In this document: one piece after another, positions 10,523-51,943 of the stretch
Layout: every line of letters begins with the position of its first letter
Position numbering within the stretch: position 1 is the first letter of the stretch
NCBI GenBank assembly: GCA_051294375.1
Contig: JBJCIZ010000046.1
Location: 10,162 to 74,161 of the forward strand
Reading direction: 5' to 3'
Source of the DNA: Paraspadella gotoi
Taxonomy: Eukaryota; Animalia; Chaetognatha
DNA length: 64,000 bases
Position numbers and translations under genes: made by a program
Notes under the pieces: generated by a model
What the model saw: the letters and a program-made list of their open reading frames with translations, nothing else
Told to the model about the DNA's origin: nothing
The model's database searches: none

Positions 10523-10989
10523 TTTCTCGTTTAACTTTTGTTTGGGTTTTTTTCGCCGTCTCCTTCCTTGAGGGCGTCAATGACCAGTTTGAAGGAATTG
10601 TCCTCTGTTTGCCACTTTTTTATTTTGGTGGCGAGTGGGACGAGGTTTGATTGCCTTTCTTGTGGTTGGGTAATTTCCATGGCAACCTCGGCTTCCGTGG
10701 TGTCGATGTCCGCCTCAAGGGTGCTGTCTGTCATGAGTTCATGATCGGTGCCTGTTTTTATCGCTTCTATTGTGTCAGAAACTTGAACGGGTGAAGTTGT
10801 GGGAGCTTCGACGTCTTTCGTGTCTAGCTGGATGTTTACGAAATCCTGTGGGAGCGCGTCGATATGTCGGGTGTCTACCTTGGCGGTTCTGGGTCGTCCC
10901 CTGCGTTCGGGTTGTTTGAGCATATCAACTTTGATGGTTTGGATTGGCCCCAAGCTGATGGGTCGTAAGGGCGTTGACTGGTTTACGTC

Positions 10990-11370
10990 ATTGACAAGGC
11001 TAACTTGTCTGGTAATGGTTCTGAAGATTTTCAGTGTTCTCTCGTATGTCGGGAGGCCATATACCCTTTCGAATTTGCAGCCTGTCTCCTTGGTCGAGCG
11101 TCCATCATGATTATGGTAATTTGAATCATTTCACTGAGGATTTCCAGTTCGGGGTGGCCGAGACTCCAATCTTTGGTGGAAATTGTCCTGATGAAGGCAT
11201 CAGCATCCTTGGTCTTGGGCTTGCCGTACAATTTTTCAATGTTGGCTTTTTTTGTAAGAATTTTTGTCTTACGAATTCAAAAAATTTTGCCCTGAAGGAT
11301 TTCGTGTCCTCGTTTAGTTCTTTGCTACTAATGCTAGTGTTGGGGCGTGTCCCGTGATGAGTTCTAGATG
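10990..11370 (-). other. OTU-like domain (catalytic Cys/His absent) within family B pol, copy B1
   Basis: GHAPTLALVAKELNEDTKSFRAKFFEFVRQ...AFIRTISTKDWSLGHPELEILSEMIQITIIMMD...YG...LKIFRTITRQVSLV follows OTU motif order; conserved in B2. Confidence 0.5.
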
Positions 11371-11386
11371 TTCTGGAGTTTCCTGG

Positions 11387-11838
11387 TCATAGAAGGGATT
11401 TTTCGGCGAAACCTGGTTCATACTCTCCTGTTACGTCGAATCCCGCTGGGAAGAATGGAGTATCGAGGGGCGTCACTTGACCTTGATCAGTAAAACGGGT
11501 TAGAAAGTCAGCCGGGTTATCTTCGCTTTTAACGAGGATAACCTCCTTGGGTTGGCATTCTTGTTTGATTTCCGTAATCACCTGAGTACGTTCGTGGGCA
11601 GTAGCTGTTGCCTGTCGTGTTGAAGATCCATCACCCTTTTGAAATATTGTGAAATCTGTGACGAGGGTGACGCTACGCCCACATGTGTAGCCCTTAAATT
11701 TTTGCACCATCATATTGAAGGCGAGTGTCTCCAGAATGTTGATATGTTTTATCCTGTATTCGTCTGGGAATGATTTTGAGTGGAAGGACAATGGATACTC
11801 GACGCCATCTGCGGTGGCGTGATTAAACCGCCCATTAA
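11387..11838 (-). CDS. RNase H domain, family B (frameshifted)
   Basis: Ty3/Gypsy RNase H motifs ETLA, VTD, NPADFLTR. Confidence 0.85.
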
Positions 11839-11859
11839 GATCGCCCTCTAATATAGTAA

Positions 11860-13670
11860 ACGATTTATTAGGAAATCGTGCCTCGCAAAGAGTTCAATTT
11901 GAGGAAGAAGAAAAATTACATGAAGAAATATCTCTAGACAAAACATTATTAGACTCCGCGCAAATGAGTTTAAAAGACCAATTTATGATGCTACAGAAAA
12001 GGGGGCTTGACGGAATTAGAAAAAAATTATTTCTCAAAAAAATCTGATTTATTTTTAACACCACCTTCGAAAATTAATTTTAAAGATCGTGATATTAATA
12101 ATTCTGAACATGAAATAGAAAATAGAATAAGGAATTACATTGCGATACGAAATGATAAAGCTGTAAACGGTTCTCAGTCACTAACATGCCCGTCTGGTCA
12201 TTGTTTAGTTCCAACTGGAGGATGGATCCGAAAGCTGTTTGGATGTGTGATGTATGTGATGACCGTAACAGGGCATATACTATGCGGTATAATTGTTCAT
12301 GTTGCGATTACGATGTTTGTTTTGAATGTTATAAGGCCATTGAGTTTAGATGGCTAGCTTGGGAGCTCCTCTCGCTTTGATCGCTCATGTTCCGGTTTTC
12401 GTCGATGCGGAGGAATGCTTGTGGCTCATGCATCAGGAGATCGTGCGGCGACGACAATTGGGGACGTGGGTGGGCGTGACCCAGAGGATCGCGAGGATGC
12501 AAGGGACAACGGCGGCGCGGCTGGGGCGGTGCAGGCGGCGCAGCTGGCGGCGACGATGATGACACGACGGCGAAATCGGTCTTGGATAAGGATGGTAAGA
12601 GATCGAGGTCACGGTCGTGATCAAAACCGTTCTCGTTCTTTCTCGCGAAAAAAATTACAGATCATTTCGTCTTAAAATGCTGGGGCAAATGAAAAAATAT
12701 AATGGTCCTCCAGAAGATTTTCGTCAATGGTTCGATTTTTTAAAATTAGCGGCGGATTATTTAGAGCTAGAAGAAGCAGATAAACGGATTTTTTTTATTA
12801 AATAATATGGAACTCAAGGTCTAAAATCGGCAGTATTAGATCAATTGCGTGAATACAATCATCTTTCATTTGAAGACGTCCGGCGTCAGGCTTGCCATTA
12901 TGTTTGGAGCCAAGTCACGTGACTTGGTAGTGTCTGAAGTCGAAAACATTGAACGGCATGAGGGAGAAGCGATCGAGTCATTTGCTATTAGAGTCAGGGA
13001 AGCTCTGACGGCGCGGTACCTCGCTCATGCTGATGGTGAAAAAATGATAAGTCTTCATTGTTTGAGGAAGATAATTTGCTCTATTTTACAAGGGTTTAAG
13101 AAGTCAATTTTTACGAAAGTTGTTTATTAAAAAGGAGCAAAAACGGTCCGGGAAGCCATCATTGCCAATCCGTAAAGAATGGCGCAAGTTTCCAGGATTG
13201 AATGAGGCAGAGAGATGACATCGCATGGAACAAGGAGAAGGGCCAAATCAAGAACACACACACTGGGAAATTCTTTGTTAATTCCATTGCCAAAACACTT
13301 TGAGTCTGGAGAACTTTGATGATCAGGGTCATGCATTTGTCACATGAGGATGTGGTCAATCAGGTCAACTCGCGGCCGCTATCAATTTCAAAGAAACCCT
13401 GGAAGGGTATCTGGGGGGTGTGGTAATTGTGGTAAAACATCTCATTTTAACAAAGATGATTGCCCTGCAAAGGGATGGTGTGTTGGGCTTGTAAAGGTGT
13501 TGGACACTTCGGAAAGTGGTGTCGAAAAGGAGTGACACCAGCACAAGTGGTAAGAAGTGAAAAAGTCTCGAGACAAAAGCTAAATGAGAGAAAAACGATC
13601 AATGCCATTAGTGATGGTGCAGTTCCGGTGGGATCATCTTCAGAAACGTCTGGATCCGAAACGATGTAAC
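11860..13670 (+). CDS. gag: Family A Gag (frameshifted): N-terminal ZZ-type finger, capsid-like core, two CCHC knuckles
   Basis: CPSGH.L...WMCDVC...RYNCSCCDYDVCFECY at 12183-12335; KYNGPPEDFRQWFDFLKLAADY and EAIESFAIRVRE core motifs; CGNCGKTSHFNKDDC and CWACKGVGHFGKWC at 13418-13525. Confidence 0.85.
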
Positions 13671-13779
13671 TTTAGATGAGAAGAAGTTCATTTAATAAAA
13701 GAAAAGATGGAAAATATAAAATAAAAAATAAAAATAAAAGAGTTAATGTAATACAAGAAGAGCAAGTGAATGCAGTTAG

Positions 13780-14170
13780 TAATTTACCATTTCTCCATGC
13801 TAATCTAATTGACCGGGATGGAAAAAGTTGTATGGCAAAAATTCTTGTTGATACCGGAGCTTCAGTGTCATTGGTGCATAAAGCCTTTTTAACCGTGGCA
13901 GATTGCTGTGCGATACCATTGATTATACTGCAGTGATTTCTGGCTTCGCAGGGCAGCCTGTGGCGACTAATCATAAAGTTTTATTAAAACTCGATTTGCC
14001 GGGATTGGGACAAACTAAAGATCTGGAATTTGTTCTATATCATGGCAAGTTGGGATATGATGCAATTCTTGGTTTTGATTCGCAAAAAATACTAGATTTT
14101 AGTATAATATATAAACCAAAATTAAGTTTTATTTGTGGAAAAATTAAATTACCTGTTAAATCATATAATG
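13780..14170 (+). CDS. Family A aspartic protease
   Basis: ILVDTGASVSLV catalytic motif and YDAILGFD. Confidence 0.9.
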
Positions 14171-14699
14171 ATAATATTGAACAAAATAACTCTGAACAAG
14201 AGATACATTTGGTGCAACCTGCAGAGCCAATGATGAAAGTCAAGTTAATAATGCTTTAAATAATAATAAATCATTAACTGAAATTACTTAGTAAAAAATG
14301 ATATATTTTTCCTACCAATTGGAATGTAGGAATTGCACAGTGGTATTATAAATTTAAATTATCAAAATCTTGGGTTCGAAAATGGGCTTAGATTGCAAAA
14401 TAATGAAATAAATTTTGTACCTAAAAACTTGAGATCAGAACAACTAAAAGCTATTCTTCATTTAAAATTTATTGGTAACAAAAATAATCGTTTATCAATA
14501 CCACTTGGGGCAAATCTTGGGAATTGACACCGGGAAGTGAAGAAGTGGTCTCGAAATTCATGTGAATATGTGGATGGTCTTGAGGTTCGCGAGAAACTTG
14601 AAGCCGAGCTGACACTGTGTATGTTTTTGCTAAAAAAACTATAGTGACGTCTCAGCAGTTGAACGAAGTGAAAGCGGCGCAGGAGAGAAGAAAAAATTG

Positions 14700-15630
14700 T
14701 GGACCCGTGATGAATTTGTGGACAAAACACAGTCCTGGCTAGCAAAAGTGCCGGAGAGGTTCCGTGACGACATTTTGGACATTATGATGGAATTTTCGAG
14801 GTATTTTTGCACGATATGGACGACCTTAAAGAGGGTGTTTTGGGATGGGAACTGGCTGCAAAGTTTCCGGGTGACTTGCACTGGGCTTCCAAGTACAAAG
14901 GCAGCAGTCCAACTGTCAGATTGTTGTGCAAGCGGAGCCAAGAAATCTTGGTGAGATGCGGAATCTTTGAACCTGCGGACAAGCCGGTCTTCGTACATCC
15001 ATTCACAGTGGTTCCCAAGAAAGCAAAACTTTTCCCTGCAACCATTGAAGCCGCACAAGAAATGAGCGAACCTGTTTTCCTTGGAGCTGTCCGACCAATC
15101 ACTGACTGCAGCTATCTAAATCGTTATACCAAAGATAGCATGGCCTCTGTTGTTCCTGTTCTCACGAATATGTCTCTAAACTTAAATGTGATGCTTTGAG
15201 ATCATTTGTAGATTTAACATCTCTTTTCATCAAATTAATGTTTCAGCAGAAATTGATTCACATGGCTTTTGCCTAGGGATTTATTTGGCATGCATTCTTA
15301 CCTAACTGGGTATCAATTTCTTCGGGCTTGCAAGGTCCTAATGGGTTTAGCAAATGGAAGTTTGTGTGGCAGGAGAGTATTTAAATCTATAGCTGATAAA
15401 GTAGGGGCTGTCCCTGTCAGCTGTTCTTTTGAAGATTCAAGAAAGCTATTCCTAGGGTTGATGCTGGTAAGTTTGTAGCTGAATTTAAAGACATAGGAGA
15501 GGATGTAGTTGAATCATTTATAGATGATGTATTCTTGCAAACATTAAGAGATTGTCATCTTATAAATTAAAAGAAAAAAGTTTTTATAAAAAGCCTAGTA
15601 AGATCAAGATGCTATTTACTATTTGCACTT
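14700..15630 (+). CDS. Family A reverse transcriptase, 5' part (frameshifted, interrupted)
   Basis: GIFEPA..FVHPFTVVPKK, RPITDCSYLN, SFVDLT.FHQ, LMGLANGS, ESFIDDVFL. Confidence 0.85.
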
Positions 15631-15632
15631 AA

Positions 15633-16904
15633 GGCCTGCGATCATTCAAACAAGAATTGCATAAAGTTTTTTTACAATCTGTTATTTATACCAAAGGAAG
15701 TGTATTCCCTTCACGTTTCAAAAAAAAAAACTCTAAATTTGATTAAGGTTCAACTTCAAGAGGCAACTAAAAATCGGGCAATTTTTTTTATCAGTAAACC
15801 TTTTAAATTTCATCCAACACGGTAAAGTCATTTTAAACGCAAAATTTTTTTATTTTTTTTTAATTAACAGCACCTACCTCAGTGTAATACTAACAACTAA
15901 AACCAAGTCATTCCAATTATGTTATAGAAATCAATTAATGATGAAAACATAAACGTTTATGTAGAGAGAGAGCAAAACGCTATATTAAGGTGTCTATTAT
16001 CATTTTATTACAAAAAAGAATGATTAAAATTGTAAAATTTAAAGACATTCATCCACTGGCATCTGAAGTAGGGTCCACTTTGATAACAACCCTCAATGGT
16101 GCCATAGATGCCACAGATTCCACAGACGGACCAGCCTCATGCTCTGCTTTTGAAATTTAGTTTCTGTTCCCCAGGTTCAAAACTGGTTCAAAACAAGACT
16201 GAGAAAAAAATAAATAAACACTTTGCAGCATTTCCTCCTGTTTACTGACTGCTTTTCCCCAGCCACAGCCATTTGTTAATAAAAAAAAATTGGACAAAAT
16301 TTGGAATAAAACTTTAAAGATCGGTAAAGCAATCATTTAAACTGGAAATGAAAATAGATTTTGGAAAAGCGTATCGATTTTAAAGTTCTTTGCTCGAACT
16401 TTCAGTTTTTGTAAAATCTACAGAAAAAAAAATTAAAAAATAAAATAAATAAACAAAAAGAATTGGAGCTAAAACTGTTTGAAATAAAAATAAATCTAAA
16501 ATATATTTTTATAAGTATGGAAAGGTGGAAAAAATTCTATGAGAGGGATTTCGAAAAATGTTACTAGTTTTCAAGATATTTAGAATTTAATGCCAAAATT
16601 TTCTTATTCTTTTTTTTTCTTATGAAGATAAGTGAATTTGAAAAAATCCCTCTCATAGAATTGGGACCCTTGTCCTCAAGTAAATTTATGTAAAATTTCA
16701 TGAAAATCCGCTTAGCCGTTTGGCCACAACTCTTCCAAAAGGTTTCTTTTATTTTATATAGTATTATAAATTCGAAAAAACAGCAATGGAATTCGAAGAG
16801 AAAGAAAAAAGGGAATACATTTTCAGAATCATCTGGACCTCTACTTTCCGAATATAAGCTTTTTTTTAATCCTAATTATAACTTTTGGCCAGTGATCCCA
16901 GGCC
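15633..16904. mobile_element. Non-autonomous TIR DNA transposon, Kolobok-like
   Basis: TTAA|GGCCTGCGATCA ... TGATCCCAGGCC|TTAA: 12-bp imperfect TIRs, GG/CC termini, TTAA on both sides; absent from the same RT site in copy A2b. Confidence 0.7.
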
Positions 16905-17236
16905 TTAAAGCGTTTTGATTGTAAAATTTTTTACTTTTTCGTCTCGACGACGTACCCTATAATGAAGAGATGAACGAAAGCGATACTCTAAAAGCGAATG
17001 AAAAAGATTCCATTTCATGACATACTAGAATCCCCGGAGACAAAACACGGAAACAAATTGGTTGTACAAGATCGAATTCATCGTCCACGGCGGCCGGAGT
17101 GGAAGAGGTAGATCGCCCATACCAAGATACAGAATGAGAGGAACACAAACAACTACAACGCGGAACAAAACGCCTATCAATGGGAACTTCAGGATATGTG
17201 TTGGGCCAAACACCGCCGCCGCACTCAAAATCCAAA

Positions 17237-17935
17237 GTAAAATTCATCTTATGCTTTAAGGAAACAGCTGATGTTGTTTGTATACCAGAAAAAAAGTTGC
17301 AGATACTTAAAGAATTTCCTAGACCGGATTCGGTTAGAAGTTTACAAAAATTTATAGGATTCTGTAATTTTTTTTCCTTGTTGTTAAGAAATTCTAAAGT
17401 TTTATTTGCTCCTTTATTAAGATTGTTAAGAAAAGATTCATCTTATAAATGGGAAGACGAGCATGAAAAGGCTTTTCAAGAAATCAAAAGAAGACTGTCG
17501 CAGCAACTGTTGGTTGGTTTTGTTAGGATGTTGGACAAGAGACACGAATCAGAACTTTTGTGTTATGTTGACTGGAGTAAAGATGCAGGAGCGGCTTCAG
17601 CTGTAGTTTATGTAAAAGATTATAAAACAAAAACCATCCAATTAGCTTATTTTTGGAGCCGTTTGCTTAGCGACACCTTTGTCAATAAACCACCTTATTT
17701 ATGTGAAGTGGCGGCAGTCACAATGTTCTTGCTCTCAAATAGGATGTTATTGCTAGGGAGTTTGATACATATTTACACTGATAATATGGTAGGGGCTTCA
17801 TTACTAAGACAAAGATTACGTGCGGTGGAGTTTACAACTTTACCTATTTTGCATCGCTTATTAATGTCTATTTCAATGATACCTTTTACTGTTAGTTATG
17901 TTAACACTGATTCAAACCCCAGCGATCTTACCTGA
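17237..17935 (+). CDS. Family A RT thumb/connection and RNase H
   Basis: FPRPDSVRSLQKFIGFCNFF, YKWEDEHEKAFQEIK, YVDWSKD, CEVAA, IYTDN, NPSDLT. Confidence 0.9.
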   Translation, partial: VKFILCFKETADVVCIPEKKLQILKEFPRPDSVRSLQKFIGFCNFFSLLLRNSKVLFAPLLRLLRKDSSYKWEDEHEKAFQEIKRRLSQQLLVGFVRMLDKRHESELLCYVDWSKDAGAASAVVYVKDYKTKTIQLAYFWSRLLSDTFVNKPPYLCEVAAVTMFLLSNRMLLLGSLIHIYTDNMVGASLLRQRLRAVEFTTLPILHRLLMSISMIPFTVSYVNTDSNPSDLT

Positions 17936-18929
17936 GCAGAATTAAAATCCAAGAATCTATGTCGGATGATGAGATACTGATCGTCCATTGAGTCCCGGGG
18001 ATTTAGACATAGTTGACAAGGAAATTACATCATTATCATCCACTGTTGAAGAATATTTCCGTTGTCATACTAAAAATGATGAAATGATGGTTAGTCAGGA
18101 GACAGAAGTGTGGGACAAAGCAGTATGCGAAAAAAGTATGAAGACTCACATTTTTTTTCCGCGGAAGATGAGTTGCAGCAATCATGATGTTGCTGGTTGC
18201 TGAGACTACAAACAGTTTGCCTGAAAAATTGAATGAAAAAAAGAATGGGATTAGCTGGGATGAAAATAATTTCTTGGTCTAAACATCCTAATGCGAAATA
18301 AAATTTGAGATTTAAATCATAAATTAAAATTTAAATGTTAAAATTATTTGAAGAATCCGTTGAGGATAAGTTAATTAATAATTATCACTATACTAGTAAC
18401 CATTCAGATCTTATTCATTATTTAATGGGCGGAACAAAAGTTAAATGAATTTAATGATAATTTTCAATATAAGACAAGGTTAGAATCCTTATTTGTATGT
18501 ACAAGGCCTGAGTTGGTGATGCATCTACTGTCAACTTCTGATGGAATGGTTGATGCTGATGTTCTTATCTCACGTCAATTGATGGCTTACCATTTCAAGA
18601 ATTAAATGTGATAACGGAAATTCTTAAAAACAAAAAGGGGATGGATACCGACGCTCCACCTCTCTTTGATTCTGTTGAAGAACTGCAGCGCTTTGTCGCA
18701 GAACTCGAACTGAGCCCAATGGTTGATGGAAAATTCAAGTACCTTAAAGAAGTGCAATCTAGAAATGACGGTTTCTCTACAATGATTCGTCTATTGCAAG
18801 GTGAACGGCCTGATGATCGGAAATCAAATTATCTAAAGCAGATGGACAAGCTTTTCTGGAATCTTGAGCAGAACAAGTCTCTTTTGTTTGATTAAAGAGG
18901 GTTGCTGTTTAAGTGAGATTTCCAAAAGG

Positions 18930-20316
18930 TGGGTGAAGTGATAAATTACCAAACTTGTGTTGCTGAAGGTGATGCCAGTGAGAAAAATTATCTCAATTCA
19001 CTCTCAAACCCACTTTGGGATTGCATTCACTTACACAATTTTTTTGTCGGGATTATTTTACCTTGGGAGCCTACAAAAAATATTATGATGCAGTGGTTGC
19101 TTGTCCATTGTGTGGCCAAATGAGATCAAAGCGAAAGATTGAAGAATTTTCCTGGAACACGCAGTTGACCTACAGTGCTTGGAACATTGACCATAAAGGA
19201 CCACTGAGTGGAGGTTCCGGATCTGCGCCCTATTACATTCTTTGTGCAGTGGAACAGAACATCCGTTGGTCGTTTTTCTGTGGCAAGAGACACCTCGGCT
19301 AGGACAACGGCAAAATTGTTGTTTGACAGAGTGTTGGCTTGCTACGGAGGTGCGACCGAGTTTGTTTCTGACAGAGGGGCTGGTTTTGTGTCGGAATTAT
19401 CAAATGGTTGTTCTTACTCGGTAGCCAGAGACACCGCGTGACGAGTAGCTATCGACCATGTGCAAATGTGGCTGAAAACTTTGCTGTTCGTAAGCTAAGT
19501 TCCTCAATGAAATTTCTTTTATTCAATAAAAATCCTTCAGAATTAAGAGAAAATTTATCTTTTTCAATTTATGTTAAATGGATCTTGCTTACATCCGTTA
19601 CGGGAATGACTCCTTTGAAGAGTTCTTTTTTCGTGACGCTTCTTATTTTCATCCTCTTTTAATTAAAAATAAAACGGTTTCAATAGATAAATTTCTAACG
19701 GATCGTTTGGAAAAAATGAGAAAAATTATTGCAACATTGCGCGAAAAATATGATATTTACTATTCTGAAAGAGTCCCTGCATTTTGTACAGTAAACTCAG
19801 AAAAACTTAAAATTGGTGAGAATGTTTGGGTTAAGATTTTCGCAGCGAAACGACATTTAAGATATCTTAAATCGGTTTTACCGAAATATCGTTTAGCTAA
19901 AATTACTAAAATAGTCTCACCAGTCAGTTTGATTCTCGAGGAGTTATCGACGGGAAGAACCATTTCACGACATATTGTTGATGTATTTAAACTGTCACCG
20001 ACATCTTCTTTTGTCAATGTTTATATTGATACTAAATCTGCACGAATCCGCGAGTTGGAAGATTTTGCGGGTGACAACGTTTTTCGTTCAAAAAATTTAA
20101 ATGAATTGGGCGACGATAAAGAAAAAGTTTAAGATGCTGGTTTGGAAAATGTAAGATTAAAATTAAATGGAGATTTCTCAGAAGTAAAAGCAGCTGATTC
20201 GGCTGCGTCGCAGCGTCGTGATGTTTCAACGGACGGAGCAAGGATCGGGAGAACAAAAGACGGGGCTCGTGATCGGTATGAGTTGAGGCCTCGAAAACAT
20301 GTTAATTATAAAATCT
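18930..20316 (+). CDS. Family A integrase (frameshifted)
   Basis: CPLC, WNIDHKGPL, FVSDRGAGF, SYRPCANVAE; C-terminus RYELRPRKHVNY typical of Gypsy integrase tails. Confidence 0.9.
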
Positions 20317-20526
20317 AAAATTTTCTTGTCTCGTTAATTCATTCATTCGTTCTTTCATCTATTGGTCAATCTCATCTCATCGTAATTTGGCTTGTTTGTT
20401 TTCAGTTGTTTGTTTTGTCCGCTAGCAAACTTTTAATATTTTTGTAAAATACCTAAACTTTTGCTGGGGGCCATGATAGTGGTTAATTGATTTGATTAGC
20501 AAATTATGTTTGATGACATAAAACGA

Positions 20527-20625
20527 AAATAAACATACTAACTAAATATGTATGTTTTGTAACATACAAACAAATAAACATGCTAACTAAATATGTATGT
20601 TTTGGAACATACAAACAAAAATAAA
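20527..20625. repeat. Short tandem duplication (about 45-50 bp) downstream of the antisense gene stop
   Basis: aaataaacatRctaactaaatatgtatgttttgKaacatacaaac occurs twice; also present in A3 and A2 copies. Confidence 0.7.
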
Positions 20626-20662
20626 CTATCTAAACTGGAAAAAAGAAAAAAAACACGCTACA

Positions 20663-22150
20663 TTAAGTGACATTGAGTTCGACGGCGTCGAGGAGATCGG
20701 CGATGACACGGACGACATCGGCGTCGGTTTGGTCGTCGTCGTAGTCGTCGTCGTTGTCGCAAGTTAGGCGACGAAAGTCGATGAGGATCGGGAGCCCGTC
20801 CCCATCGATGATATGGTGAAATTCATACTGAAAAATTAAAGACAAAAAATTTGTACTGAAAACTGAGAATTAAAATTTAATATTAAAATCGGAAAACTCT
20901 GAGACTTTGATATAGATTCACTTACGCTCGCAACGTCAGAAGTAGGCGAGGGCGGCATCAGTGGCGACGGCGGCGGCGAAGGCGTAGTGGAGCGGGACCA
21001 TCGTTGGTAATGGCTGCTGCTGCGATTGCTGCTTCTGCGGCTGTAGCGCCTCTTGCGGTCGAGGCGGCGTCTGAGACGGCGACGTAGGAATAGTTTGTAG
21101 ACTGGAATATTAATTGCGGTTATATAAATATATAAAAGGAATCAAAATTCTTACAGTATTGTATTTTAATAAAAGGAACAGAAAAACGGACTTTTTATTT
21201 AGAACTAACAGAATCGGAGCGTCATCATGATGATGATGACGACGATTGCCAGGGAGATGCCGGCCAGCGAGAATGACGCTGGAGCGACGACGGCAGCCAT
21301 AGTGGGCCTTGCTGCCCTGGTTGGCAGAATGGGCGTCGTTGTTATTTTTGTTGTTGTTGTTGTCGACGTGGCCCTGGTTGGCAGAAAAAACTTTGACGAC
21401 GTTATCGTCGTCGTCGTTGTAGTCGTCAACGTTTTCGTCACGGATGGAATCAATTTTGACACCGGGACATTTGTTGTCGTGGTTGTAGTTGTTGTCATTT
21501 CACTGATTGGAAAATCAATAATGAAGGCGTTAAAGTTAAGTAAACTGGTTGGTTGTAAACCATTTACTAAATATTGCCCGAAAATGAAAATGTGCGCTCT
21601 AGAAAATCGAAATTGAAGAGAGAAAAGGTATCGACCTTGATTGATTTTTTCCAGTGGTTGTCTCCACATTCGTCAAGTTGACAACGGACCCTGAGCTGGA
21701 TGATGGACCCTTTGGACGACGCGTTGGGAGGCGTACGGAGCCTTGCCTCGGCGTTGCCATGGTGCGCCCCCCACCGCTAAGGTGGTTGATGAGGCGGGCG
21801 TGGCCATTGGTGGGCGTCGTAAGATGTGACATTGGATAAGGAAGGCGAAATTTGGGTGAGACAGCGTCAGACATTGCACTTTAGTAAGGACCGCCTTGGT
21901 GTTCAGGCTCGGCCAACATCACTGTGCGCGATGAAAGTGCGTCGCCCGTACGAACCAGAGTTGCAAGTTGGATTGTGGACGGATTGAACTGAGTTGTGCG
22001 TGGTGTCACAAGGCAAAAGTCTAATGTAGTACTCTGGTACAAGGTGAGCCCTGGGAGCGAATTCACTTAGTGCTTGGCGTTTGCGGTCATTAGAAGCGGC
22101 GAAATCTCCGTGTGTACAATTTTAGATTTGGAATTTTGACGGAAAATATT
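20663..22150 (-). CDS. Spliced antisense accessory gene of family A: Thr-rich mucin stalk, TM helix, Arg/Ser/Pro-rich and acidic cytoplasmic tail; exons 20663-20827, 20926-21101, 21210-21502, 21636 to about 22150
   Basis: Introns 20828-20925 (GTAAGT..TTTTTCAG), 21102-21209 (GTTAGT..TTCCAG) and 21503-21635 (GTCGAT..AATCAG) join with matching phases 0, 1, 2 into one open frame; same splice sites in copy A3. Confidence 0.8.
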
Positions 22151-22703
22151 TTTTGTGGGAAAAAATATTGTTGCAATTTACAAAGTTTGATTATTATTGA
22201 AAAAAAAATATAAAATAATTATACTAGAAATTTGGTGAAAGAAGTTACTTACTTTTTGTGTTGGGCACCATTTTCGTCGTTGATCACTTGTGAGAGTGGA
22301 TCAGTTTGTGGCTTGGAGGAAAACCAAGTGAAGCCCGCTTTGCTAGTGACCTTAACTTACCTAACCTTTGTTTTCTTTAGCCGACGGTGGTCAGAGATTT
22401 CGTTCTGTGACGCGGTGAAAAATAAAAGTTGTCGACAAACATTGAAAAAATAAAAATAAATAAAAAACGAAATATTTCGTTGTTGGGTTTTTAAGCAGAG
22501 AGCGGTGATTTGAGGGGAACAAAAGCCTGGGGGCCAGGTTAGCTGAGTTCAGAACTATTGTTAAGTTGAGGGAGAAGAGCCCGTCTGTGGATAAGTAATG
22601 AAATTTAGTTAGTTTCCTAAGTTGTTCTGAAACGATGAGTGTTGTTAGTGAAACAATAGCATCGTGTACGATTTTAGGATAGAACGTTTTGTTTTTTTCA
22701 CAG

Positions 22704-23257
22704 ATCGTCAGTACATAGTCATGTTAGCGTCGCTATGGGCGTTGGCGTGGCACGAATCCGTCATCTTCCTGGACGGGTTGCCGTGGGATCGCGACCAGGG
22801 CCAATCCTTGGTGTAGATGGCACTGATGGTTTCTGATTGCAATTAATTTATTACCTTCCTTTTATCTGATTATATTGTACATTATAAAAATGGCGGGGAC
22901 AATGATGGGGCTGCCTGCATGTCGAGGTTAGAAAAGGGACTGAACAGCACATTTCTGACTTAATAGTGAGCTTCTACAGTACAGTAATGAATTGATAGAG
23001 ACACGTTATTACCTGAAAAATTTTGACAAATTGGAAAAGAGAGCTATATCGCGGGAGTTTTGCGCTTCTTTTGGGGATTGCAAATGCTTTTGCCACGGGT
23101 ATTCATGTGGTTAATTCTAACATTCAATATAACACTTGAACATAGGCTAAATTTAATTGGCAACTTTGTTGAAAAGTTTTTTTCAAATCAGGTTCAACTG
23201 AATGAAAATATAAACTTCTTGTCAGACAGGACATGTTTGGGGTGCATGTGAATCTTA
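22704..23257 (+). pseudogene. env: Family A env, 5' part, truncated
   Basis: Near-identical to 47861-48428; breaks off at gaatcTTAAg. Confidence 0.8.
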
Positions 23258-26200
23258 AGAATAGTTCGTCCTTTTCTCTCTAAAGACTCGTTTCAGGTCA
23301 TTTTAAAATGACCACTATTTAAAATGACCATTTTGATTATTTTTACTTTCGTGAGAGCTTGCGATACGTTTTTAGTTTCTCTGCAGAGCTCAAACGTTGT
23401 ACCCGCTTCGAAAACCCGTTTTTACGGGTCTCCGGTAGGATTTTGACTAATAAAGTTTCACAATAAAATAAGAAACATCTTTTCTATTCGGGCCCATGTT
23501 AAGATAGTCAGAACGGGCAACGTTCGAATGTTTGCCTTCGCGAGCGTGAGACCAAAATATCTCACAATAATAATAATAATAATAATAAAAATAATAAGAA
23601 GAATTTTTAATAACAATTTTCATTTACTTAATTTTATTGTAAATATCAGTTTTAGTTTTTGTCACTTTGTATTGCTTTATTTTGTTTCTTGCCTTTGTTT
23701 TTTATTCATTATATAATTTTTTTTAAATATTTACAAATAATAAATTTTGTAAATATTAAAAATAAACCTCTCTGTTCTCATCACAAACTCAATAAAATAA
23801 AAGAAAAAAAGAATATCAAACTTGACTTAAAGGCAACAATAATGTTACTAAGAGTAAAATAGCTGATGCCTTTTGTATGATAAACAACACCTCTCTTACC
23901 TTAAAATATTTTTTTAACATGACAATGTCTTACAATTTATTTTTTTTTGTTTATATTAAGAAAGTTTTAAATACCATTTGACTAAATCCATAAATTCATT
24001 TGTTTCCTGATCGCTTTAGTTTATTTGTTTGCTTTATTTTAGGTAGTTTAAAATAATGCAAAACTTTATACATTAATTAAAAATTATTAGATAAAGTAAC
24101 TTCTTAAAAATAAAAACAGTTTTATATCTCCTTATTTCATATATATTTGAATAAAACTATCTGCTTAACCATCTTTACTTTTTTTCAATTTTTTAGGTTT
24201 TTTTCCAAAAAATTACTATTTTTAAATAATATTTAAACATTAAGTAATGTAAGTTTTTTACATTTATTTAGTTGAAAAGAGTTTTATATACTTGAATTTA
24301 ACTATATTTTACTTAATTAATAATATTAACCATTTTTATTTTATTTATAAATTTGCAATTTTTTTTATTTTTTTGCATCTTATCGCATTATAAAATCGAT
24401 AGAACGAGAAAATTGGCCGAGCGAATTTTTAATTTTTTGATCTGAGGAATAGTTTTACATGTGTTTCAAAAAATTAGGAGGGCACAAGATGCCCTTTTTT
24501 ATTTCTTGTATTTATACTTCGCGCTATATTTTCCGTTTTGTTCGTTTTTTGATAGCCTAGGAGAAGAGACGACATATAGAGTAGGAAAGAATAATATAGA
24601 TTATCTCTCTTTGATCGTTTATATTATTCATAGTTTGTCCCTAACATTTTTTCACTTTTTGGTAAAGTTTTTTGCCTCAACTTTCAAAACACTCTAGACG
24701 GACGGAGTTTTGTAAGTTGACGCGAAAATATAATAACTTTAGGCTTTTGGAGCGACGGTCAACCCTGTTCATGACTGTCTCCCTGCGCGCCGCAAGGCGG
24801 ACGGTCTCTCTTGTACGTATAGCCGGTTCCATTAAGAATTGGTTGAGAGAATTTGTCGGGAACTCCAAACTTTTTTTTTGGCATTCGGTAACGAAAGGTT
24901 TACTTGTCTGACTACCGTCTTCCTCTTTAGACGGGAAAGGACCTTACCGAGAACCCCTTTAGTACTTACCCGTCCTTACAGTTGCGTCCCGGCTTTCTTT
25001 GGCAGGTTAGCTGGTTCGTAATCGTTCGGACATTGTACGTCTTACTTTTTTGTGTCTTTCTCCCTTTAAAATAAGATAGCAGGGAGCTGGGTAAGGAGCC
25101 AGCGACGAGAAGGTTTACCATGTTATTGCTTTGCTTGCTTTTTGGCAGGGTTGGAGCATGCTCGCCCCATCCATTGTCTCCTAGTTTTACCTTGCCGTAT
25201 TTAATCTCGTTAATACGGCAGACGGATGCTTAAAGTAAGGTTAAACCAGTAAAGTAACTTCCTTCAGCGCATTTAGTAATGATTATGTTTTATAGAGTAA
25301 CGATTTTTTGGTTTTCTTATGTTTTGGGTTTTAGTATTATTTTAAAATTATTTTTGCTTTACAGTGTATATTTTGATAATTCATTCCAAGAAGATTCGTT
25401 TACAAGAAGATCGTTTTACAAGAAGAACGGCGAATTTAGTACAAATTTGATTCTCTTCTCATTTTACTATTTTTTCCCGTAGGAGTAGTCTAAGGTTTTT
25501 TCGTGTCGTAGTACGGTTGTGCGTCTCTAATATTTTTTGGTAAGGAGTCGAACGTACGCAGATCTTCAAAGATTTGTTCTTCCGCATCGAGGTCCTCATC
25601 GAGAATCGTGAGGGATGCTTGAGGGATGCCTGAGGAATGTCTGGAAAATGTTTGACGATTCTTTGATGCGGCTACCTGCGGTAAGGAAAATTTGAATATT
25701 TTGAGATTTGTGTCCTTCGTCTCTGGTTGTTTGTGATTATGAAAGGCACCTTTTCGCCTTGCCATGTTCGTCTGAAGGTTGAAGGGTTGATATCGTTCTT
25801 AGCCGGTTCGATATTAATCTTGAGATCCGATTTCGTTCCTGCGGGGGGCGGACAGTTTCATTTCGGTAAATTTCGTGTATATCGTTTTACCAATGATCGA
25901 CAACCTTAGTATTTTTAATTTACCTTTTCGGTTCCATCTTTGGAATTCGAATTGGCCCCGGCGGTGCCGTATTGTCCTTACAATTTGGGCTTCCACTAAT
26001 ATTCACGTTTCCTTTTTTAGTTGGCTACTCATCGAAGGATTCGGGTGTAACATATGTCGAGTTCGAGGTTGGCCTCAGGAGACAGATCCACTGGCGTTCG
26101 AACTTTGACCTAAGTGAAAATAGAAAAGTTTATTTTGCTTCTAAATTTCGAGAAATGGATTAGACAGAATTTTGTAGTAATAATGCCCGAAGATAGTTTG

Positions 26201-26488
26201 CCAAAAATCATTTTATTGTGTTAGTAAGTCAGTAAGTTAGAAAATATTTAGCTCCCTTTGATCTCATTCCCCCCTGCCTTGTGTCAATTTTTTTATAGGA
26301 TTCTTTGAATTGTATCTTTTTCAGTTAGCGGGCAAACATTTTTAAAGTTAATTGCCAGGATTGGCCAGTTTTTTAGTATTTTACGTTTTTTTGGATTGCG
26401 GTTGAAAAACGGGTGTACTGAAACACGCCGTACAGAGTTATTTTTTCCTTTTCTTATTCGTAGTCGCCATCGTCACACGGCGCTTCGC

Positions 26489-28409
26489 AACTCGGCAGAG
26501 GTTGGTGAGCGGCACCTCCGGCCGTTATACGTGAACCGAGCGAACATAGTTGTCTTCGTTTATGCCATTTTTTGGGTAAAAAATTATGTTTAGATTTACA
26601 ACAACCGTAGTTTTTATTTACATCAGGCTCGGTTTTTCTAAATCATTATTGTGTAACCTGCCTGTTTCGTCTTCAAACATGATAACTTGAAGTACATTAG
26701 TGTGTGGAAGAGGGTTGTCGCCGGTCAGTTTGTCGTCTGCCGTCGTTACCCGCCTGTCCGTTCAACCGCTTGTCAGTTTTTTGTCAGTATTTTGTCAGTT
26801 TTTTGAAGAGACTGGACTTTTTTTTTGAGGTATTATGACAAGTCCTGGGCGCATTTTTTGCATACTCAGCTTTTAAAATTTCTTCCTTTCTGCTTTCCAT
26901 CCCCCTGCGACCGGATATTTTAGATGGTTCTTTCTAGACATTAGCTGATTCTGATTGGTGCCCATGATTTTGATAGATTTCGATTTGATTCTAATCGAAT
27001 TCTGGCTACATGGTATCTTCAGATCTCAAAGTTGTCACTGGGTTTTTAGTTCTCTTCAGAGCATAGAAACTCTTTTATCAGATATCTCGGAATCTTATTT
27101 TTTTGTGTGATTGCTGGTTTGGTGGACTTTTCTATGAGAGAAGCATCTCTATTTTTGTTTATTATTGGCCTCAGAAACAAGTAAGAAAGACACTTTAAAC
27201 TTATATATTTTTGCTGAGTTTGTACTAAAAGTTTTGTTATTCCTTGCCCAGGACTTCTAACAGCATCAGACTCACAACAAGACATTTTGTCAAGTCCTGG
27301 GCTTTGTAGATCGTCGTCCTTTTGGCCTTAGCCGACGTCGTCTACTGAGACTGTGTTGTCCTCATCTCCAGGGCATCATGACCGGCGCCATCGTCTCTTC
27401 TGCGCCATTTTAACCCGAGTTCATCTGGTCTTCAATGCGCAGAATAAGCCTAGACAAACTCGGCAGAGGTTGGTGAGCGGCACCTCCGGTCATTATACGT
27501 GAACCGAGCGTGCTTGTTTCGTCTTCAAACATGATAACTTGAAGTACATTAGTGTGTGGAAGAGGGTTGTCGCCGGTCAGTTTGTCGTCTGCCGTCGTCA
27601 CCCGCCTGTCCGTTCAACCGCTTTTTTCGTCAGTATTTTGTCAGTTTTTTGAAGAGACTGGACTTTTTTTTTTTGAGGTATTATGACAAGTCTGGCGCAT
27701 CTTTCTGCTATACGTCAGCTTTTAAAATTTCTTCCTTTCTGCTTTCCATGCCCCTGCGCGACCGGATATTTAGATGCGTCTTTCTAGACATTAGCTGATT
27801 CTGCATTCTGAGTGCCCTCCATGATTTCGAATCAGATCTCGATTTGATTCTAATCGAACTTCTGGCTCAGTCCGTGTGTATCTATTTCCAGATCTCAAAG
27901 TTGTCACTGGTGTTTTTCAGTTCTCTTCAGCAGCCAAGACAGAAAGCTCTTTTTATCAAGATACGTCTCGGAATCTCTATTTTTTTTTTGTGTGATTGCT
28001 GGGTTTGGGCTGAGACTGTTTCTATGCAGAGAAGCCAGTCTCGTTATATTTGTTTGTATTGGCCTCTCAAAACCAACGTAAGCAAAGACACTTTAAACTT
28101 ATATATTTTGCTGAGCTTTGTACTAAAGTTTTGTTATTCCTTGCCAGGACCTTCTACAGCCACAGACTCACAACACCATTTCGACATACTGTTGATCGAC
28201 GCGCCAGCTGCCTGGGGCTGTTCGTAGATCGTCCGTACCTATGCTTGCGAAACGTATAACACTCGTAGATAAGCTCCCCGCACAGTCGATCTACCTGAGA
28301 CTGTGTCGTCCTCATCTCCAGGCGCAGTCATGACCGGCGCCATCGTCTCTTCTGCCCATTTTCAACCCAGTTCATCTGTACTTCAATGCGCCAGCAATAA
28401 GCCTAGACA
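26489..28409. repeat. Tandem duplication of an approximately 950-bp unit with degenerate minus-strand coding potential
   Basis: aactcggcagaggttggtgagcggcacc starts at 26489 and 27458; both units end gcctagaca; the second lacks about 120 bp and has many extra-base differences. Confidence 0.85.
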
Positions 28410-29121
28410 GTTAGAATTCAAAGACGCCACTCCTCCGATACTTGCGTTTCAATACAATAACAACTATAAATATAATAATAATAATAAATAATATAATAAT
28501 AAATAACATAAAATAATATTATAACAATAAGATAACAATATAATATAATCAATAATGAATAATAATAATAATAAAACAAGTGTGAAAACAATGCTCGCGC
28601 ATCTGCCCTACGATAATTAATTAATTAATTTAATTAATTAATTTAATCCAATTTAATTAATTAATTTAATAGTAATAATTTATTTTCAAATTTAATTCAA
28701 CTTATCATCATCGATGTCCTTAAATCTGGGTTAGGACAGTTTATTAAATATGTTTTGCTTATACATTTTATCCAAAACAAACAAATATCCTCTATTTTAT
28801 TTATTCTCCTTCTCTCTCTCTCTCTCCACTCTCTCTCTCTCCTACATCCGTCCCTAGTTCTCCTATTGCAACCTTGCGACCATCTTTATCTTTTTAAGAT
28901 TTGCTTTAACTGCATCGATTTTTTTCACACTTAATAATTAATTAATTAATTAATTAAAACATTTATTAGTAATCCATTAATATCTAAAGATTCAATTTGT
29001 AAAATGTGACTTATGTTTCTTNNNNNNNNNNNNNNNNNNNNNNNNNNNNNNNNNNNNNNNNNNNNNNNNNNNNNNNNNNNNNNNNNNNNNNNNNNNNNNN
29101 NNNNNNNNNNNNNNNNNNNNN

Positions 29122-30277
29122 GCCTATGTCCAAACTGGATCTCATGAGGAGACATTTCTGTCTTCCAGCCTATGATGGGCGTGGCGTTCAGCAGCAACAT
29201 TAAGTGAGGGAGGTGATCCAGCCATTTTCTCGGTTGGTCCTCAACAGCTTTACGGAGGGCTTGACGTATTCTGCCGATGTCCCTCTCTGCCCTATTACTG
29301 TCCTTTCTCCCAACTAAGACTCTTCTGCCAACTGTGTCGAGCAGGTCCAGTATGGAGCTCATTGCCTTTCCGTTTAGTTGTGTTGCGCCATCAAAGTTAA
29401 CTTCCATATAAGAGCCGTGCTGGAGGAAGATCCTTTCATCTAGTGCTTTCACGATCGTTTNNNNNNNNNNGCGGCGTAGTGGGATAGCCCACGTGTATGC
29501 AGATGCATTGTCAGATGCAACTAAGGCATAGTTAAATCCAGCTACTGGGGGAAGATGCATTACATCGATGCTCAGTGATTCCCATGGAGTGATGGCTAAA
29601 TTTGGAGCTGACGGAGTTTCATTGTTTCTCTGTGCATCAGTAGCTTTTGCGCAGTTATCACAGTTTCTTACACATCTTGCTGCGGCGGCCGATAACCCTG
29701 GTGCTGTGACATATTGAGCTGATATAAATGCTGTGCGATCGCGGCCGGGGTGTCCATAATGTTGATGTATTTTTCTTATTATCTCTTCGATTCTACTAGG
29801 TGGAACAACGAACTTTGTGGTTGGGTTATCTGCTTTATAACCTTTTAATATCANNNNNNNNNNTTCAGTTATGTCAAGATCAGCGAGGACGTTTGTAAGG
29901 TACTTTTCGGTTAAAGTCTTTCTTTTTTGCATTTTTTCATTTAGCATTCTCTCGGCGTTAGCCCGGTCATTTTGTTGCAAGGCCTTTATGACGATTTTGA
30001 ATACCTCGTCTTCCTGTTGCCATTGTCTAACGTGTGTCGCTAATGGCATGAGTTTTATTTCTATCTTGTCAGGATTCGCTGCTTCCTCTGCTATTTCTGG
30101 GGCTGAGGCGTCGACGTCTGCCTCCATTGTGCTGTCGATCATTAACTCTTCTTTTGCGCCGGGCCATTTCGATTGAATTGTTTGCACTGAGGCTTGTTGA
30201 GTTGTTGTGATTGGCGTTGGTGGCGTTCTTGCGTCGTTTGGTTCTGGCATCTCTACATGGACTAAGTCCTCTGGCAA
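29122..30277 (-). CDS. Family B integrase, copy B2 (C-terminus lost in gap)
   Basis: HQHYGHPG...CDNC, SIDVM, NFDGA, NRAERDI. Confidence 0.92.
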
Positions 30278-33242
30278 CGCCTCCCAGCGATGGCTGGCGA
30301 TCTTTTGTTTCTTTGGTCTTCCTCTCAGCTCTGGTTTTCTCAGATTCTCTACGCTGATTGTCTGGATGTTCTCATTTGCTGGGCGTATGAGAGGCGTGTC
30401 GGATTTTCGCGACTGATGAGACTGACTTGTCCAGTTATGGTTCTAAATATTTTTATTCGTCGACGTGGTCGGTCGGTCCGTATGTCTTTCAAACTTACAC
30501 CCGGCCTCTCGTGTCGAGTCCTCTTCCATCATTGTGATTGCGATGCCTGTCATTTCGCCTAACATTTCAGTTCTGGATGGCCTAAACTCCAGTCTTAGGC
30601 AGATATTGTTCTGACGAAGGCGTCAGCGTCCTTCGTCTTTGGTTTCCCATACAACTTTTCTATGTTCTTTTGATTGATGCAAATTTTTGTCGTACAAATT
30701 CGAAAAACTTTGTTCTGAAAGCTTTTTGTTCCTCTCCCAGTGTTTGGGCCACCAAGGCAAGAGTGGGTGCATGGCCTGTTATTAAATCTAGATGTTCTGG
30801 GGTCACGTGATCTTGTACTGGGTTTTCGGCAAATCCTGGTTCATAATCGCCGTCGACATCGAAGCCGGCGGGGAAAAAAATGGGTGTCGAGGGGTGTGAC
30901 CTGTCCTTGCTCAGTGAATCGTGTTAAGAAGTCGGCCGGATTGTCTTCGCTTTTCACTAGGATAATTTCTTTGGTTGGCATTCTTGCCGGATTTCCGTTA
31001 TCCATCTTAAGACGTTTGTCGGGAGCATTTGTTGTCGGTCATGCTGTAGATCATCTTTACTCTTTTAAAGTATTGGGAATCAGTTACTAAGGTCACCCTT
31101 CTCCGCACGTGTACCCTTGAACTTTCGCACCATCATGTTAAAGGCCAGGGTTTCTAAAGACATTGATGTGCTTTGATCGGTATTCTTCGGGGAATGATTG
31201 AGTGAAATGAGAGCGGATATTCGACGCCGTCGGCTGTGGCGGTGATTAATCCGCCCATGGCGCTGGTACTAGCGTCCGCGTAAATTCGATAGAACCATTC
31301 TTGATTCTGGCATCATAAAAAGTTTAACTGGGCAAGCCTTGATTTCGTCAACAAGGGTTGGAGCATCTCGATTGTGTTCGGAGAGCTTGAAATCTTTTCT
31401 TGTCGGTAAGGTTAGGGCATGAAGGGGTTGGGCGATGTAAGAAAATCGATGCGTAAAGCATCTGTATAGTTTAAGGAAGCTAGCATTGCTCTTAGTTCCT
31501 TTTGCGTTTTGAGAGCTTAGCTTTAACTCGACTGCTTGAAGCTTTTCTTTTTGTGGGAGGAGCCTGCTTTTGGAGATGCTGAACCCAGTATCTTGATGTC
31601 TTCCTTTCTGAGGAGGACACTCTTCTTCCCATTTGAGGACGACGTTTTCGTCTCGGCATCTCTGCAGTAGATCTCTGAGTCTCTGTGCCATGTCTTCGGG
31701 TGACTTGGCTGTGAGTATGANNNNNNNNNNNNNNNNNNNNNNNNNNNNNNNNNNNNNNNNNNNNNNNNNNNNNNNNNNNNNNNNNNNNNNNNNNNNNNNN
31801 NNNNNNNNNNNNNNNNNNNNNNNNNNNNNNNNNNNNNNNNNNNNNNNNNNNNNNNNNNNNNNNNNNNNNNNNNNNNNNNNNNNNNNNNNNNNNNNNNNNN
31901 NNNNNNNNNNNNNNNNNNNNNNNNNNNNNNNNNNNNNNNNNNNNNNNNNNNNNNNNNNNNNNNNNNNNNNNNNNNNNNNNNNNNNNNNNNNNNNNNNNNN
32001 NNNNNNNNNNNNNNNNNNNNNNNNNNNNNNNNNNNNNNNNNNNNNNNNNNNNNNNNNNNNNNNNNGGTGGAAACATGCCAGAATGTCGACGGAACATTGC
32101 AGTTCATGTGGCTTGTATTGCTCAAGGATTGAGGAGATTGTCTGTGGTTCCGTGGCGTATGNNNNNNNNNNNNNNNNNNNNNNNNNNNNNNNNNNNNNNN
32201 NNNNNNNNNNNNNNNNNNNNNNNNNNNNNNNNNNNNNNNNNNNNNNNNNNNNNNNNNNNNNNNNNNNNNNNNNNNNNNNNNNNNNNNNNNNNNNNNNNNN
32301 NNNNNNNNNNNNNNNNNNNNNNNNNNNNNNNNNNNNNNNNNNNNNNNNNNNNNNNNNNNNNNNNNNNNNNNNNNNNNNNNNNNNNNNNNNNNNNNNNNNN
32401 NNNNNNNNNNNNNNNNNNNNNNNNNNNNNNNNNNNNNNNNNNNNNNNNNNNNNNNNNNNNNNNNNNNNNNNNNNNNNNNNNNNNNNNNNNNNNNNNNNNN
32501 NNNNNNNNNNNNNNNNNNCCCACACAATTTCCCAGACTAGGTGAGCCTTGTCTTGGAGAGACGGGTCTACGTCTTTGAAGGGTTTTAGGAATGCTTCCTT
32601 TCCGCTGGTGCGTCATGTTTTTGGCGCCTGTCTTGGCCTGGCTTCTCCTCGACTGCTTTGATCTCTTCTTTCCGTTGGTTTTGTGATGAACTATCTAGTC
32701 GTGGCGGGGATATGGTCTTTTCTCACTTCCTGGTACGGGTTTTTCCTGTTAAGTCGCCGCCTGGACTGGGTTCGGCTGTGGATCCTGTTTCAAGTCCTAG
32801 TTCGGATCTTGCCTGATTGGTTATTAGAGGTTCTTGCCTGTGCCCCAGGGTCCTGGATGGGCGTACAAATTCAACTCCTTCTCTCAGTTGGTCCCGTCTG
32901 CGACGATGTGCTTCTCTCCATTCCTGGACTCGATTATCCACCTGGTACTGGCCAGGGTTTTCCAATATGGTTTATAGTGGAGGTTAGTATGATCCTTCCC
33001 TCCGCGTTTTGTTCGCGTGAATCGGCCACCATGTGTGTGTTCATCCACGTTTTCCCGAGCAGCAACCATCTGGCAGCCTTCAAGGCCTCGTATTTGTCTC
33101 GGAACAAGTGGGTTACGGGCTTTTTCCCATGGAGGCGACCTGGAGGTCGTGTCTTTGGTTAGATGGTTGTACTACCCACAATTGGTCTGGAGGCCCGGGG
33201 TTGGTGACTGCCGTTCCTATGATGATGTCGTCTGATCATTCC

Positions 33243-33533
33243 TCATCCGCGGAGATACAACGTTTTTAGGGTCCATTTTTGGAACATGATTCTTAAGTTT
33301 ATTCTTCTGGTGAGAGTGATGGTTCCAGTGGCTGTTGACAGCCTGAGAGGGGTTCCGTGGTAAATGTGTTTCGACAAGGCCCATTTTTCGATGAACTTTC
33401 GTGGGACAGTGTTTACGGATGCCCCTGTATCATACAGGCAGCTTGCTGGTGCTCCTGCGATTACAGCTGGAATGTAGCTGTTTTTCCTCTGTGTGACATA
33501 TTTTTGCGGTGTCGTCTCTGGGCTCAGGTCCAC
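33243..33533 (-). CDS. Family B aspartic protease
   Basis: SCLYDTGASVNTV motif. Confidence 0.85.
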   Translation of the reverse strand: MDLSPETTPQKYVTQRKNSYIPAVIAGAPASCLYDTGASVNTVPRKFIEKWALSKHIYHGTPLRLSTATGTITLTRRINLRIMFQKWTLKTLYLRG

Positions 33534-33599
33534 TTTTTCCTTTAATGATGTTTGTTAGATTTTCGGGTAAGATTGGGCATCTCCTTTTCATCTTTGGTA

Positions 33600-41485: not shown

Positions 41486-41489
41486 TTGA

Positions 41490-42437: not shown

Positions 42438-42439
42438 CA

Positions 42440-42690: not shown

Positions 42691-42739
42691 TCTATACTAA
42701 CAGCAGCGGCGTTTACTGCCTCCGGCTGCTGGCTTGGCC

Positions 42740-49984: not shown

Positions 49985-50002
49985 TCTTCCTCCTGTTCTC
50001 AG

Positions 50003-51827: not shown

Positions 51828-51943
51828 GTGAGAGAGAGAGAGAGAGAGAGAGATAATATTGTTTGTTTTAAAAATGAAAAGATGGCCGAGGATCTCGTTC
51901 ACATTCTTCTTTTCTTTCTCACCTTTCCTCCCCTTTCCTCCAG

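Follow-up and report, generated by a model that had tools for sequence, protein, structure and literature searches.

Between the polymerase and a third gene of a Ty3/Gypsy-like element in the chaetognath Paraspadella gotoi, the minus strand presents four GC-rich blocks that can be joined across GT-AG introns into one open frame ending in a membrane helix and a basic cluster. Does this retroelement carry a spliced gene antisense to its own genes, and, if so, is that gene kept for what its protein does? We addressed these questions in a window of 64,000 nucleotides, the whole stretch of contig JBJCIZ010000046.1 that was analyzed, and all positions below refer to it. That the cassette is a real spliced gene is probable in our judgment, and its anatomy is best read as that of an antisense gene with introns, carried by the element and coding for a single-pass membrane protein. 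The narrower claim that this frame, located between the integrase and a likely env, is a maintained accessory membrane protein gene receives a probability of about 0.45.

The element and its neighborhood

The window is a nest of LTR elements beside host exons, and much of its assembly is indel-rich. Family A is represented by copy A1 on the plus strand, by A3 (45142 to about 49500), which is 93% identical to A1 over 3.3 kb, and by the reversed copies A2 and A4. Two further Gypsy families are nested among these copies on the minus strand (9341-11893, 28946-35000, and 40552-44265). The third Gypsy family has a clear reverse transcriptase (RVT_1, E 4.7e-28) and a DUF7041 domain in its gag, and inspection by eye of 24400-28500, behind the pol of family B, revealed no clear second antisense cassette. 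On the plus strand, host exons with Kazal and laminin-EGF domains (49887-52161), which we take to be agrin-like, begin shortly after the end of A3. The features discussed below are as follows.

12600-20318, plus strand: gag-pol of A1 (protease, then RT, RNase H, and integrase), interrupted by frameshifts, stops, and an insertion
20319-20662, no strand: AT-rich spacer from the pol stop to the antisense stop (shared 3' region), containing a 45-nt repeat in 2.1 copies
20663-20827, minus strand: exon D, 165 nt, acidic tail, ends in TAA
20828-20925, minus strand: predicted intron 3, 98 nt, GTAAGT..TTTCAG, 23% GC
20926-21101, minus strand: exon C, 176 nt, basic cluster followed by a Ser/Pro-rich stretch
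21102-21209, minus strand: predicted intron 2, 108 nt, GT..CAG, 23% GC, weak donor
21210-21502, minus strand: exon B, 293 nt, Thr-rich segment ending in a hydrophobic helix
21503-21635, minus strand: predicted intron 1, 133 nt, GT..CAG, 34% GC, weak donor
21636-21874, minus strand: exon A of A1, starting at the first ATG that A1 and A3 have in common in this frame, the putative start codon
21875-22105, minus strand: GC-rich stretch (51% GC) preceding exon A, containing a short open frame of its own
22106-22404, minus strand: candidate 5' region, likely untranslated or holding micro-exons
22480-23257, plus strand: 5' portion of the A1 env-like gene (approximate start), with frameshifts; unrelated sequence interrupts it at 23257
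45822-47023, minus strand: A3 cassette, same four exons and three introns, 93% identical to A1 overall
47630-49476, plus strand: env-like gene of A3, broken frames; start approximate
4087-4790, plus strand: A4 cassette (element reversed), end of exon B with exons C and D, error-rich
2249-2712, plus strand: A2 cassette (element reversed), part of exon C with exon D, error-rich

The order protease-RT-RNase H-integrase marks family A as a divergent Ty3/Gypsy (Metaviridae) lineage. In the pol of A1, Pfam recognizes RT_RNaseH_2 (E 4.4e-7 at 17138-17932), with a weak protease upstream (E 0.06), a weak rve downstream (E 0.15), and a weak zf-CCHC. The RNase H frame has three distant protein matches, each an RT/RNase H/integrase polyprotein, with identities of 23-29%. 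Of 151 metagenome candidates, 3 proved related to this frame (27-30%, on short contigs), and none of 11 viral candidates did. The integrase tail, which contains a stop in A1, had no related locus among 19 viral and 362 metagenome candidates. The copies are truncated by nested elements, and no second copy of the A3 3' end or of the A1 5' end, as expected of an LTR pair, was found within the window. About 1.6 kb of the RT region of A1 (15632-17256) is absent from the reversed copy at 6571-8565. A Cys/His-rich finger resembling ZZ or C1, split by a frameshift, lies at or just before the start of the family A gag (12110-12310, plus strand; weak Pfam matches, C1_2 E 0.021 and ZZ E 0.22).

The third sense gene is designated env-like from its layout, by which it may be an env. 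In A3, read across broken frames, a basic pair precedes a hydrophobic peptide, followed by a Cys-containing middle and a C-terminal hydrophobic helix, a layout that resembles the class I fusion protein layout of bdelloid TelKA as described in the available portion of that report (PMC5408684). The original prediction called the element Env-bearing; the layout fits this name, and the env-like piece had no Pfam match, no relative among 885 protein candidates (longer proteins only), and a best PDB match that is unrelated (E 0.25).

The spliced antisense frame

The four blocks of the A1 cassette contain 51-63% GC (55, 63, 51, and 56%) and are separated by AT-rich blocks, each of which begins with GT and ends with CAG on the minus strand. 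Joined, the exons form a single stop-free frame of 290 codons (873 nt) from the ATG at 21874 to the TAA at 20663. The three introns originally proposed thus agree with both the splice-site dinucleotides and the GC steps; their phases are compatible, the exon peptides that had been quoted match, and, as predicted, the helix and the basic stop-transfer segment adjoin only after splicing, since an intron separates them in the DNA. In the 3' spacer, the 45-nt repeat (20527-20620) is predicted to form hairpins. Three AATAAA hexamers also occur here on the plus strand, in mid-element, and could cause premature ending of the genomic RNA; on the minus strand there is a single ATTAAA, at 20437.

Ranked by GC contrast alone, the proposed set of introns stands 7th among 854,038 GT-AG intron triples and is the best-ranked open one, the six above it being closed; among 405 near-best triples by the same measure, 6 are open. 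Block-wise shuffles yielded an open chain in 0, 3, and 15 of 400 cases (1-, 2-, and 3-mer preserving) when sites had to lie within 15 nt of a block edge and in 11, 67, and 63 of 400 with a tolerance of 60 nt, figures to be read with the facts that the blocks were drawn from the proposed splice sites and that the 3-mer shuffle preserves the GT/AG ends. The plus strand, used as a control, gave no open chain at tolerances of 15, 30, or 60 nt. The spliced A1 frame has a pronounced codon-position bias (p 3e-7), which is due in part to its Thr repeats. By a simple, crude score with hand-set weights, two donors of the three are weak, in places 21 and 27 among 115 GT sites.

An independent short-read contig, from run X1, which may itself come from the source sample, equals A1 with no difference listed over 20077-21486, and its four differences over 19920-21486 all fall in the integrase tail. 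The open frame in this interval is therefore not an assembly artifact, and exons D and C and nearly all of exon B are well read. X1 contigs run unspliced through introns 2 and 3, and none of the seven contig joints listed for this run, which is either DNA or RNA, matches a predicted intron. These contigs are uninformative on splicing, because the run could consist of DNA or of sense RNA and rare forms are lost in contig assembly. Among three sequencing runs, the stretch is present in X1 (0.70 of words), and the matches in X2 and X3 are confined to simple repeats; no run recorded as RNA was listed as containing it.

As the original prediction had cautioned, the 5' end of the cassette is less settled: the first ATG is a putative start, and no leader was found in the frames of A1 or A3. 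The open frame in the GC-rich stretch upstream of exon A is unreliable because 12 small indels separate A1 and A3 there, and the many 1-2-nt indels between the X1 contig and A1 in 21874-22029 make assembly errors likely in this part. Further upstream, the AT-rich block 22106-22252 opens with GTAAGT and a second strong donor lies at 22360, with acceptors at 22312 and 22405; the strong donors at 22252 and 22360 suggest 5' exons. A frame of about 73 codons (22271-21901, minus strand) can be built from a 6-codon first exon, the GTAAGT donor at 22252, and a weak acceptor at 22106; it ends shortly before the ATG at 21874 and might represent either an upstream ORF or another small gene. Near 22247, the depth of X1 drops from about 44 to 12 and one contig ends with 29 unaligned letters, so that some molecules may continue differently upstream of the cassette.

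Copies, selection, and composition

The cassette adjoins the integrase end in all four family A copies of the window and is followed by the env-like gene in the two that reach that far. The statement that it occurs in all four copies therefore stands for its presence, with the qualification that A2 and A4 hold only the 3' exons, in error-rich form. Their identity to other copies, 66-83% per region with many gaps, leaves their frames unreadable. A2 (2249-4057) and A4 (4087-6385) are arranged in tandem on either side of an N gap. Both have a longer intron 3, and they align at 86% identity with numerous gaps; possibly a single locus was assembled twice, or the two belong to a subfamily that has diverged.

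A3 retains all six splice sites of A1, as had been reported, a conservation of little weight since 12 bases survive a divergence of 3-4.6% with a probability of 0.57-0.69. Two in-frame premature stops interrupt the A3 cassette, in exons B and C, where a single one had been noted; neutral decay would produce 1.3, close to the number observed, which we count against a maintained gene. When A1 is compared with A3, all 4 indels in exons A-D have lengths divisible by three, versus 1 of 9 in introns 1-3 plus the 3' spacer (Fisher p 0.007). This count excludes the integrase tail, which has a single 9-nt indel, and the sequence upstream of 21874 with its many small indels. Most of the in-frame exon indels are located within or next to trinucleotide repeats, where slippage by three nucleotides is expected in any case, and this too counts against maintenance.

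The comparison of substitution rates that had been proposed as a check gave, for the exons of A1 versus A3, a pN/pS of 0.72 (18 synonymous and 36 nonsynonymous changes; p 0.26), which does not demonstrate purifying selection and is likewise counted against a maintained gene; other frames give similar ratios, the integrase tail gives about 0.67 on 10 changes, and the comparison has no power. As a further point against maintenance, few of the differences shared by A2 and A4 are synonymous (exon C, 0 of 7; exon D, 4 of 19), though the pol controls also show little excess, with 1 synonymous change of 8 for RNase H, in a comparison that is underpowered.

Composition bears on where the cassette came from. 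Its spliced frame has a GC3 of 0.62, closer to three host exons in the vicinity (0.69-0.83) than to three pol and env-like frames (0.26-0.32), and this host-like value indicates a host origin, lending some support to the captured host gene that the original prediction had offered as an alternative.

The predicted protein, its relatives, and rival readings

Exon A encodes a Ser/Thr/Pro/Arg-rich segment with two N-glycosylation sequons and without a hydrophobic leader. Exon B, with 40% Ser plus Thr, ends in a 19-residue hydrophobic helix (mean Kyte-Doolittle 2.62), about 150 residues from the start of the protein. Exon C begins with a net charge of +12 in 22 residues before its Ser/Pro-rich stretch, and exon D is acidic, with a predicted amphipathic helix at its end (moment 0.77). 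The charge around the helix, +2 before and +12 after, predicts an N-out/C-in topology, and one N-glycosylation sequon is kept in A1 and A3. A Ser/Thr-rich segment before a single helix with basic residues after it is the plan of type I mucin-like proteins, and it is matched here. The mucin-stalk membrane protein originally proposed is thus borne out in its Thr-rich segment, helix, and basic cluster, but not in a signal peptide: none was found in any minus-strand frame of A1 or A3 as assembled, in a 5' region that is indel-rich, which we count against a surface protein gene. An in-frame stop lies a few codons upstream of the ATG at 21874 in both copies as assembled, and further upstream hydrophobic windows are few; they fall mainly within AT-rich blocks or opposite env, and none follows a usable start. 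Either the protein inserts without a cleaved signal or a leader exon is still to be located, and the reading as a surface protein is weakened accordingly.

Searches returned no homologue of exon D at E 0.001 among 1.84 billion representatives, and no usable atlas match; none of 389 candidates (longer proteins only) was related to the exon C frame. A single atlas lead for exon B, at 0.76, was put down to composition.

The layout has precedents. Antisense ORFs between pol and the 3' LTR have been reviewed for Grande, RIRE2, Retand, PvRetro13, and Boty, and may have their own promoter (PMC7264820, available in part), so that the earlier statement that no Ty3/Gypsy element with such an arrangement had been described was too strong. 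These additional ORFs, namely brtn of Boty in Botrytis and Sclerotinia, gene23 of maize Grande, and those of rice RIRE2, Retand TRP28, and PvRetro13, are present in most copies and, in the portions of the sources at hand, usually lack homologues outside the elements (PMC7264820, PMC11963269; for brtn, see also PMC8365987 and PMC4227169). The family A cassette likewise is a probable extra gene behind pol and antisense to gag-pol, and the defining antisense ORF downstream of pol is present here by the frame and splice-chain tests. Unlike these fungal and plant ORFs, which according to the same excerpts have no env behind them and whose characterized products are nuclear or predicted to bind DNA, it resides in an animal host, is followed by an env-like gene, and is predicted to encode a product with a membrane helix. 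Brtn, too, reportedly has introns.

A parallel for the protein is sORF2, a FAST-like product of insect MDG1-group elements that is linked to the passage of fly elements from soma to germline and that is, like the predicted cassette protein, an element-encoded single-pass N-out/C-in protein with a juxtamembrane polybasic region, a Tyr just after the helix, and an amphipathic motif (PMC11952523, available in part). The single helix, polybasic region, and amphipathic motif of sORF2 and FAST proteins are all present in the cassette protein. Yet sORF2 has 63-107 amino acids and an ectodomain of about 30 residues, is often myristoylated, and is encoded in sense by elements without env (PMC11952523, same portion), whereas the cassette protein has 290 amino acids, is antisense and spliced beside an env-like gene, and has no MG start. 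Membership in the sORF2/FAST class (about 60-200 amino acids, ectodomain of about 30, N-myristoylation motif, sense) is ruled out by its length, its orientation, the missing MG start, and the approximately 150 residues before the helix.

In overall layout, family A appears to resemble bdelloid TelKA, which has a paramyxovirus-type F, and Oikopleura Tor4b, both with a gag-pol-env order, a class I fusion-like third gene, and a gap before env (PMC5408684, PMC4402516); in Tor4b this gap holds a sense promoter (PMC4402516), and the portions of these two reports available to us mention no antisense coding gene in it. Retroviral antisense genes such as HBZ of HTLV-1 lie in an env-bearing element, as the cassette probably does, but HBZ is nuclear (PMC11963269), is driven from the 3' LTR (PMC7264820), and has no sequence link to the cassette. 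In the literature covered, chiefly open-access articles, we found no account of an antisense membrane-protein gene between pol and env. The layout therefore has precedent, while the membrane-protein cargo in an env-bearing animal element appears to be without one.

Our working model is that host genomic DNA captured in reverse orientation is the most likely origin of the cassette, and that an internal antisense promoter near the start of env would transcribe the integrated element into an RNA that the host splices. The minus-strand introns would persist because the opposite strand, which is not spliced, is the only one that reverse transcription copies: with the plus strand as genomic RNA, introns of the minus strand are never removed from the template and survive each round. 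Insertion of the helix would leave the N terminus outside and the +12 cluster within the cell, probably with no cleavage of a signal peptide, and the Thr-rich part would be O-glycosylated into an extended stalk. Host sialomucins have a similar overall plan of stalk and basic cluster, and, as in these proteins, the cluster may bind acidic lipids or actin linkers. The product might then act as an adhesion or attachment partner of a fusion-type Env, helping particles to pass from cell to cell. We favor this function because of the sialomucin-like plan and because the helix-polybasic plan is shared with sORF2 and its link to soma-to-germline passage, yet we hold it to be doubtful in itself. Equally tentative is a two-protein entry system in which a sense fusion-type Env would be paired with an antisense, host-derived, mucin-like glycoprotein for attachment or shielding, separately promoted and spliced. 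The virus-like accessory function (attachment and the like) that had been envisaged for the antisense protein may be real.

Several rival readings have to be weighed against a maintained gene. The cassette is possibly, though not probably, a host gene fragment that was captured in reverse with its introns and is now a decaying passenger copied with the element: its host-like GC3, far from that of the element genes, and the two stops in A3 with a nonsignificant pN/pS point this way, but the roughly 2 kb kept in the same slot in all four copies, the intact frame in A1 next to an integrase tail with a stop, and the exon indels that preserve the frame speak against it. Quite improbable, in our view, is the absence of any gene, with GC-rich simple repeats and AT-rich spacers yielding an open spliced frame by chance. 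Two weak donors, the 63-67 of 400 shuffles that open at the wide tolerance, and the lack of homologues of exons B, C, and D in protein searches would be explained, whereas six GT/AG sites placed on GC steps with a rank of 7 in 854,038, the 0-15 of 400 open shuffles at the narrow tolerance, a closed plus strand, and a helix and basic cluster that meet only across an intron would not.

Other readings accept the transcript and place its function elsewhere. A maintained gene for an intracellular protein, an anchor in the ER or nuclear membrane whose basic cluster binds nucleic acid or capsids in the manner of GENE23 or HBZ, is improbable; it would account for the missing signal peptide, its Arg-rich cluster could be a nuclear signal or an RNA-binding patch, and GENE23 is indeed nuclear (PMC7264820, in the portion available), but the 40% Ser/Thr segment directly before the helix and the sequon kept in both copies fit a luminal stalk. 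It is very improbable that the antisense transcript matters as RNA, limiting the element via double-stranded or small RNA with the protein incidental, an idea for which the noncoding antisense RNAs of micropia and TART and the proposed role of double-stranded RNA provide models (PMC7264820, as available), and which the short upstream frame and uncertain start also favor. An RNA function, however, would not require an open spliced frame of 873 nt that shows codon bias and in-frame indels.

An accessory membrane protein gene maintained by the element, the reading that we prefer, would matter in several respects. The antisense genes known so far in Gypsy elements belong to plants and fungi, with nuclear products where these have been characterized, and a membrane-protein gene between pol and env in an animal would differ from them. 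Antisense genes with introns are invisible to ORF-based annotation of repeats and may therefore be common and missed. If our reading is true, accessory surface proteins can be part of the cargo of endogenous viruses in invertebrates, and a retroelement can retain the introns of a gene that it has captured by carrying it in reverse orientation. Should the two-protein entry system also prove true, a layout like that of complex retroviruses would have been reached independently, with reverse orientation preserving an intron-containing host gene.
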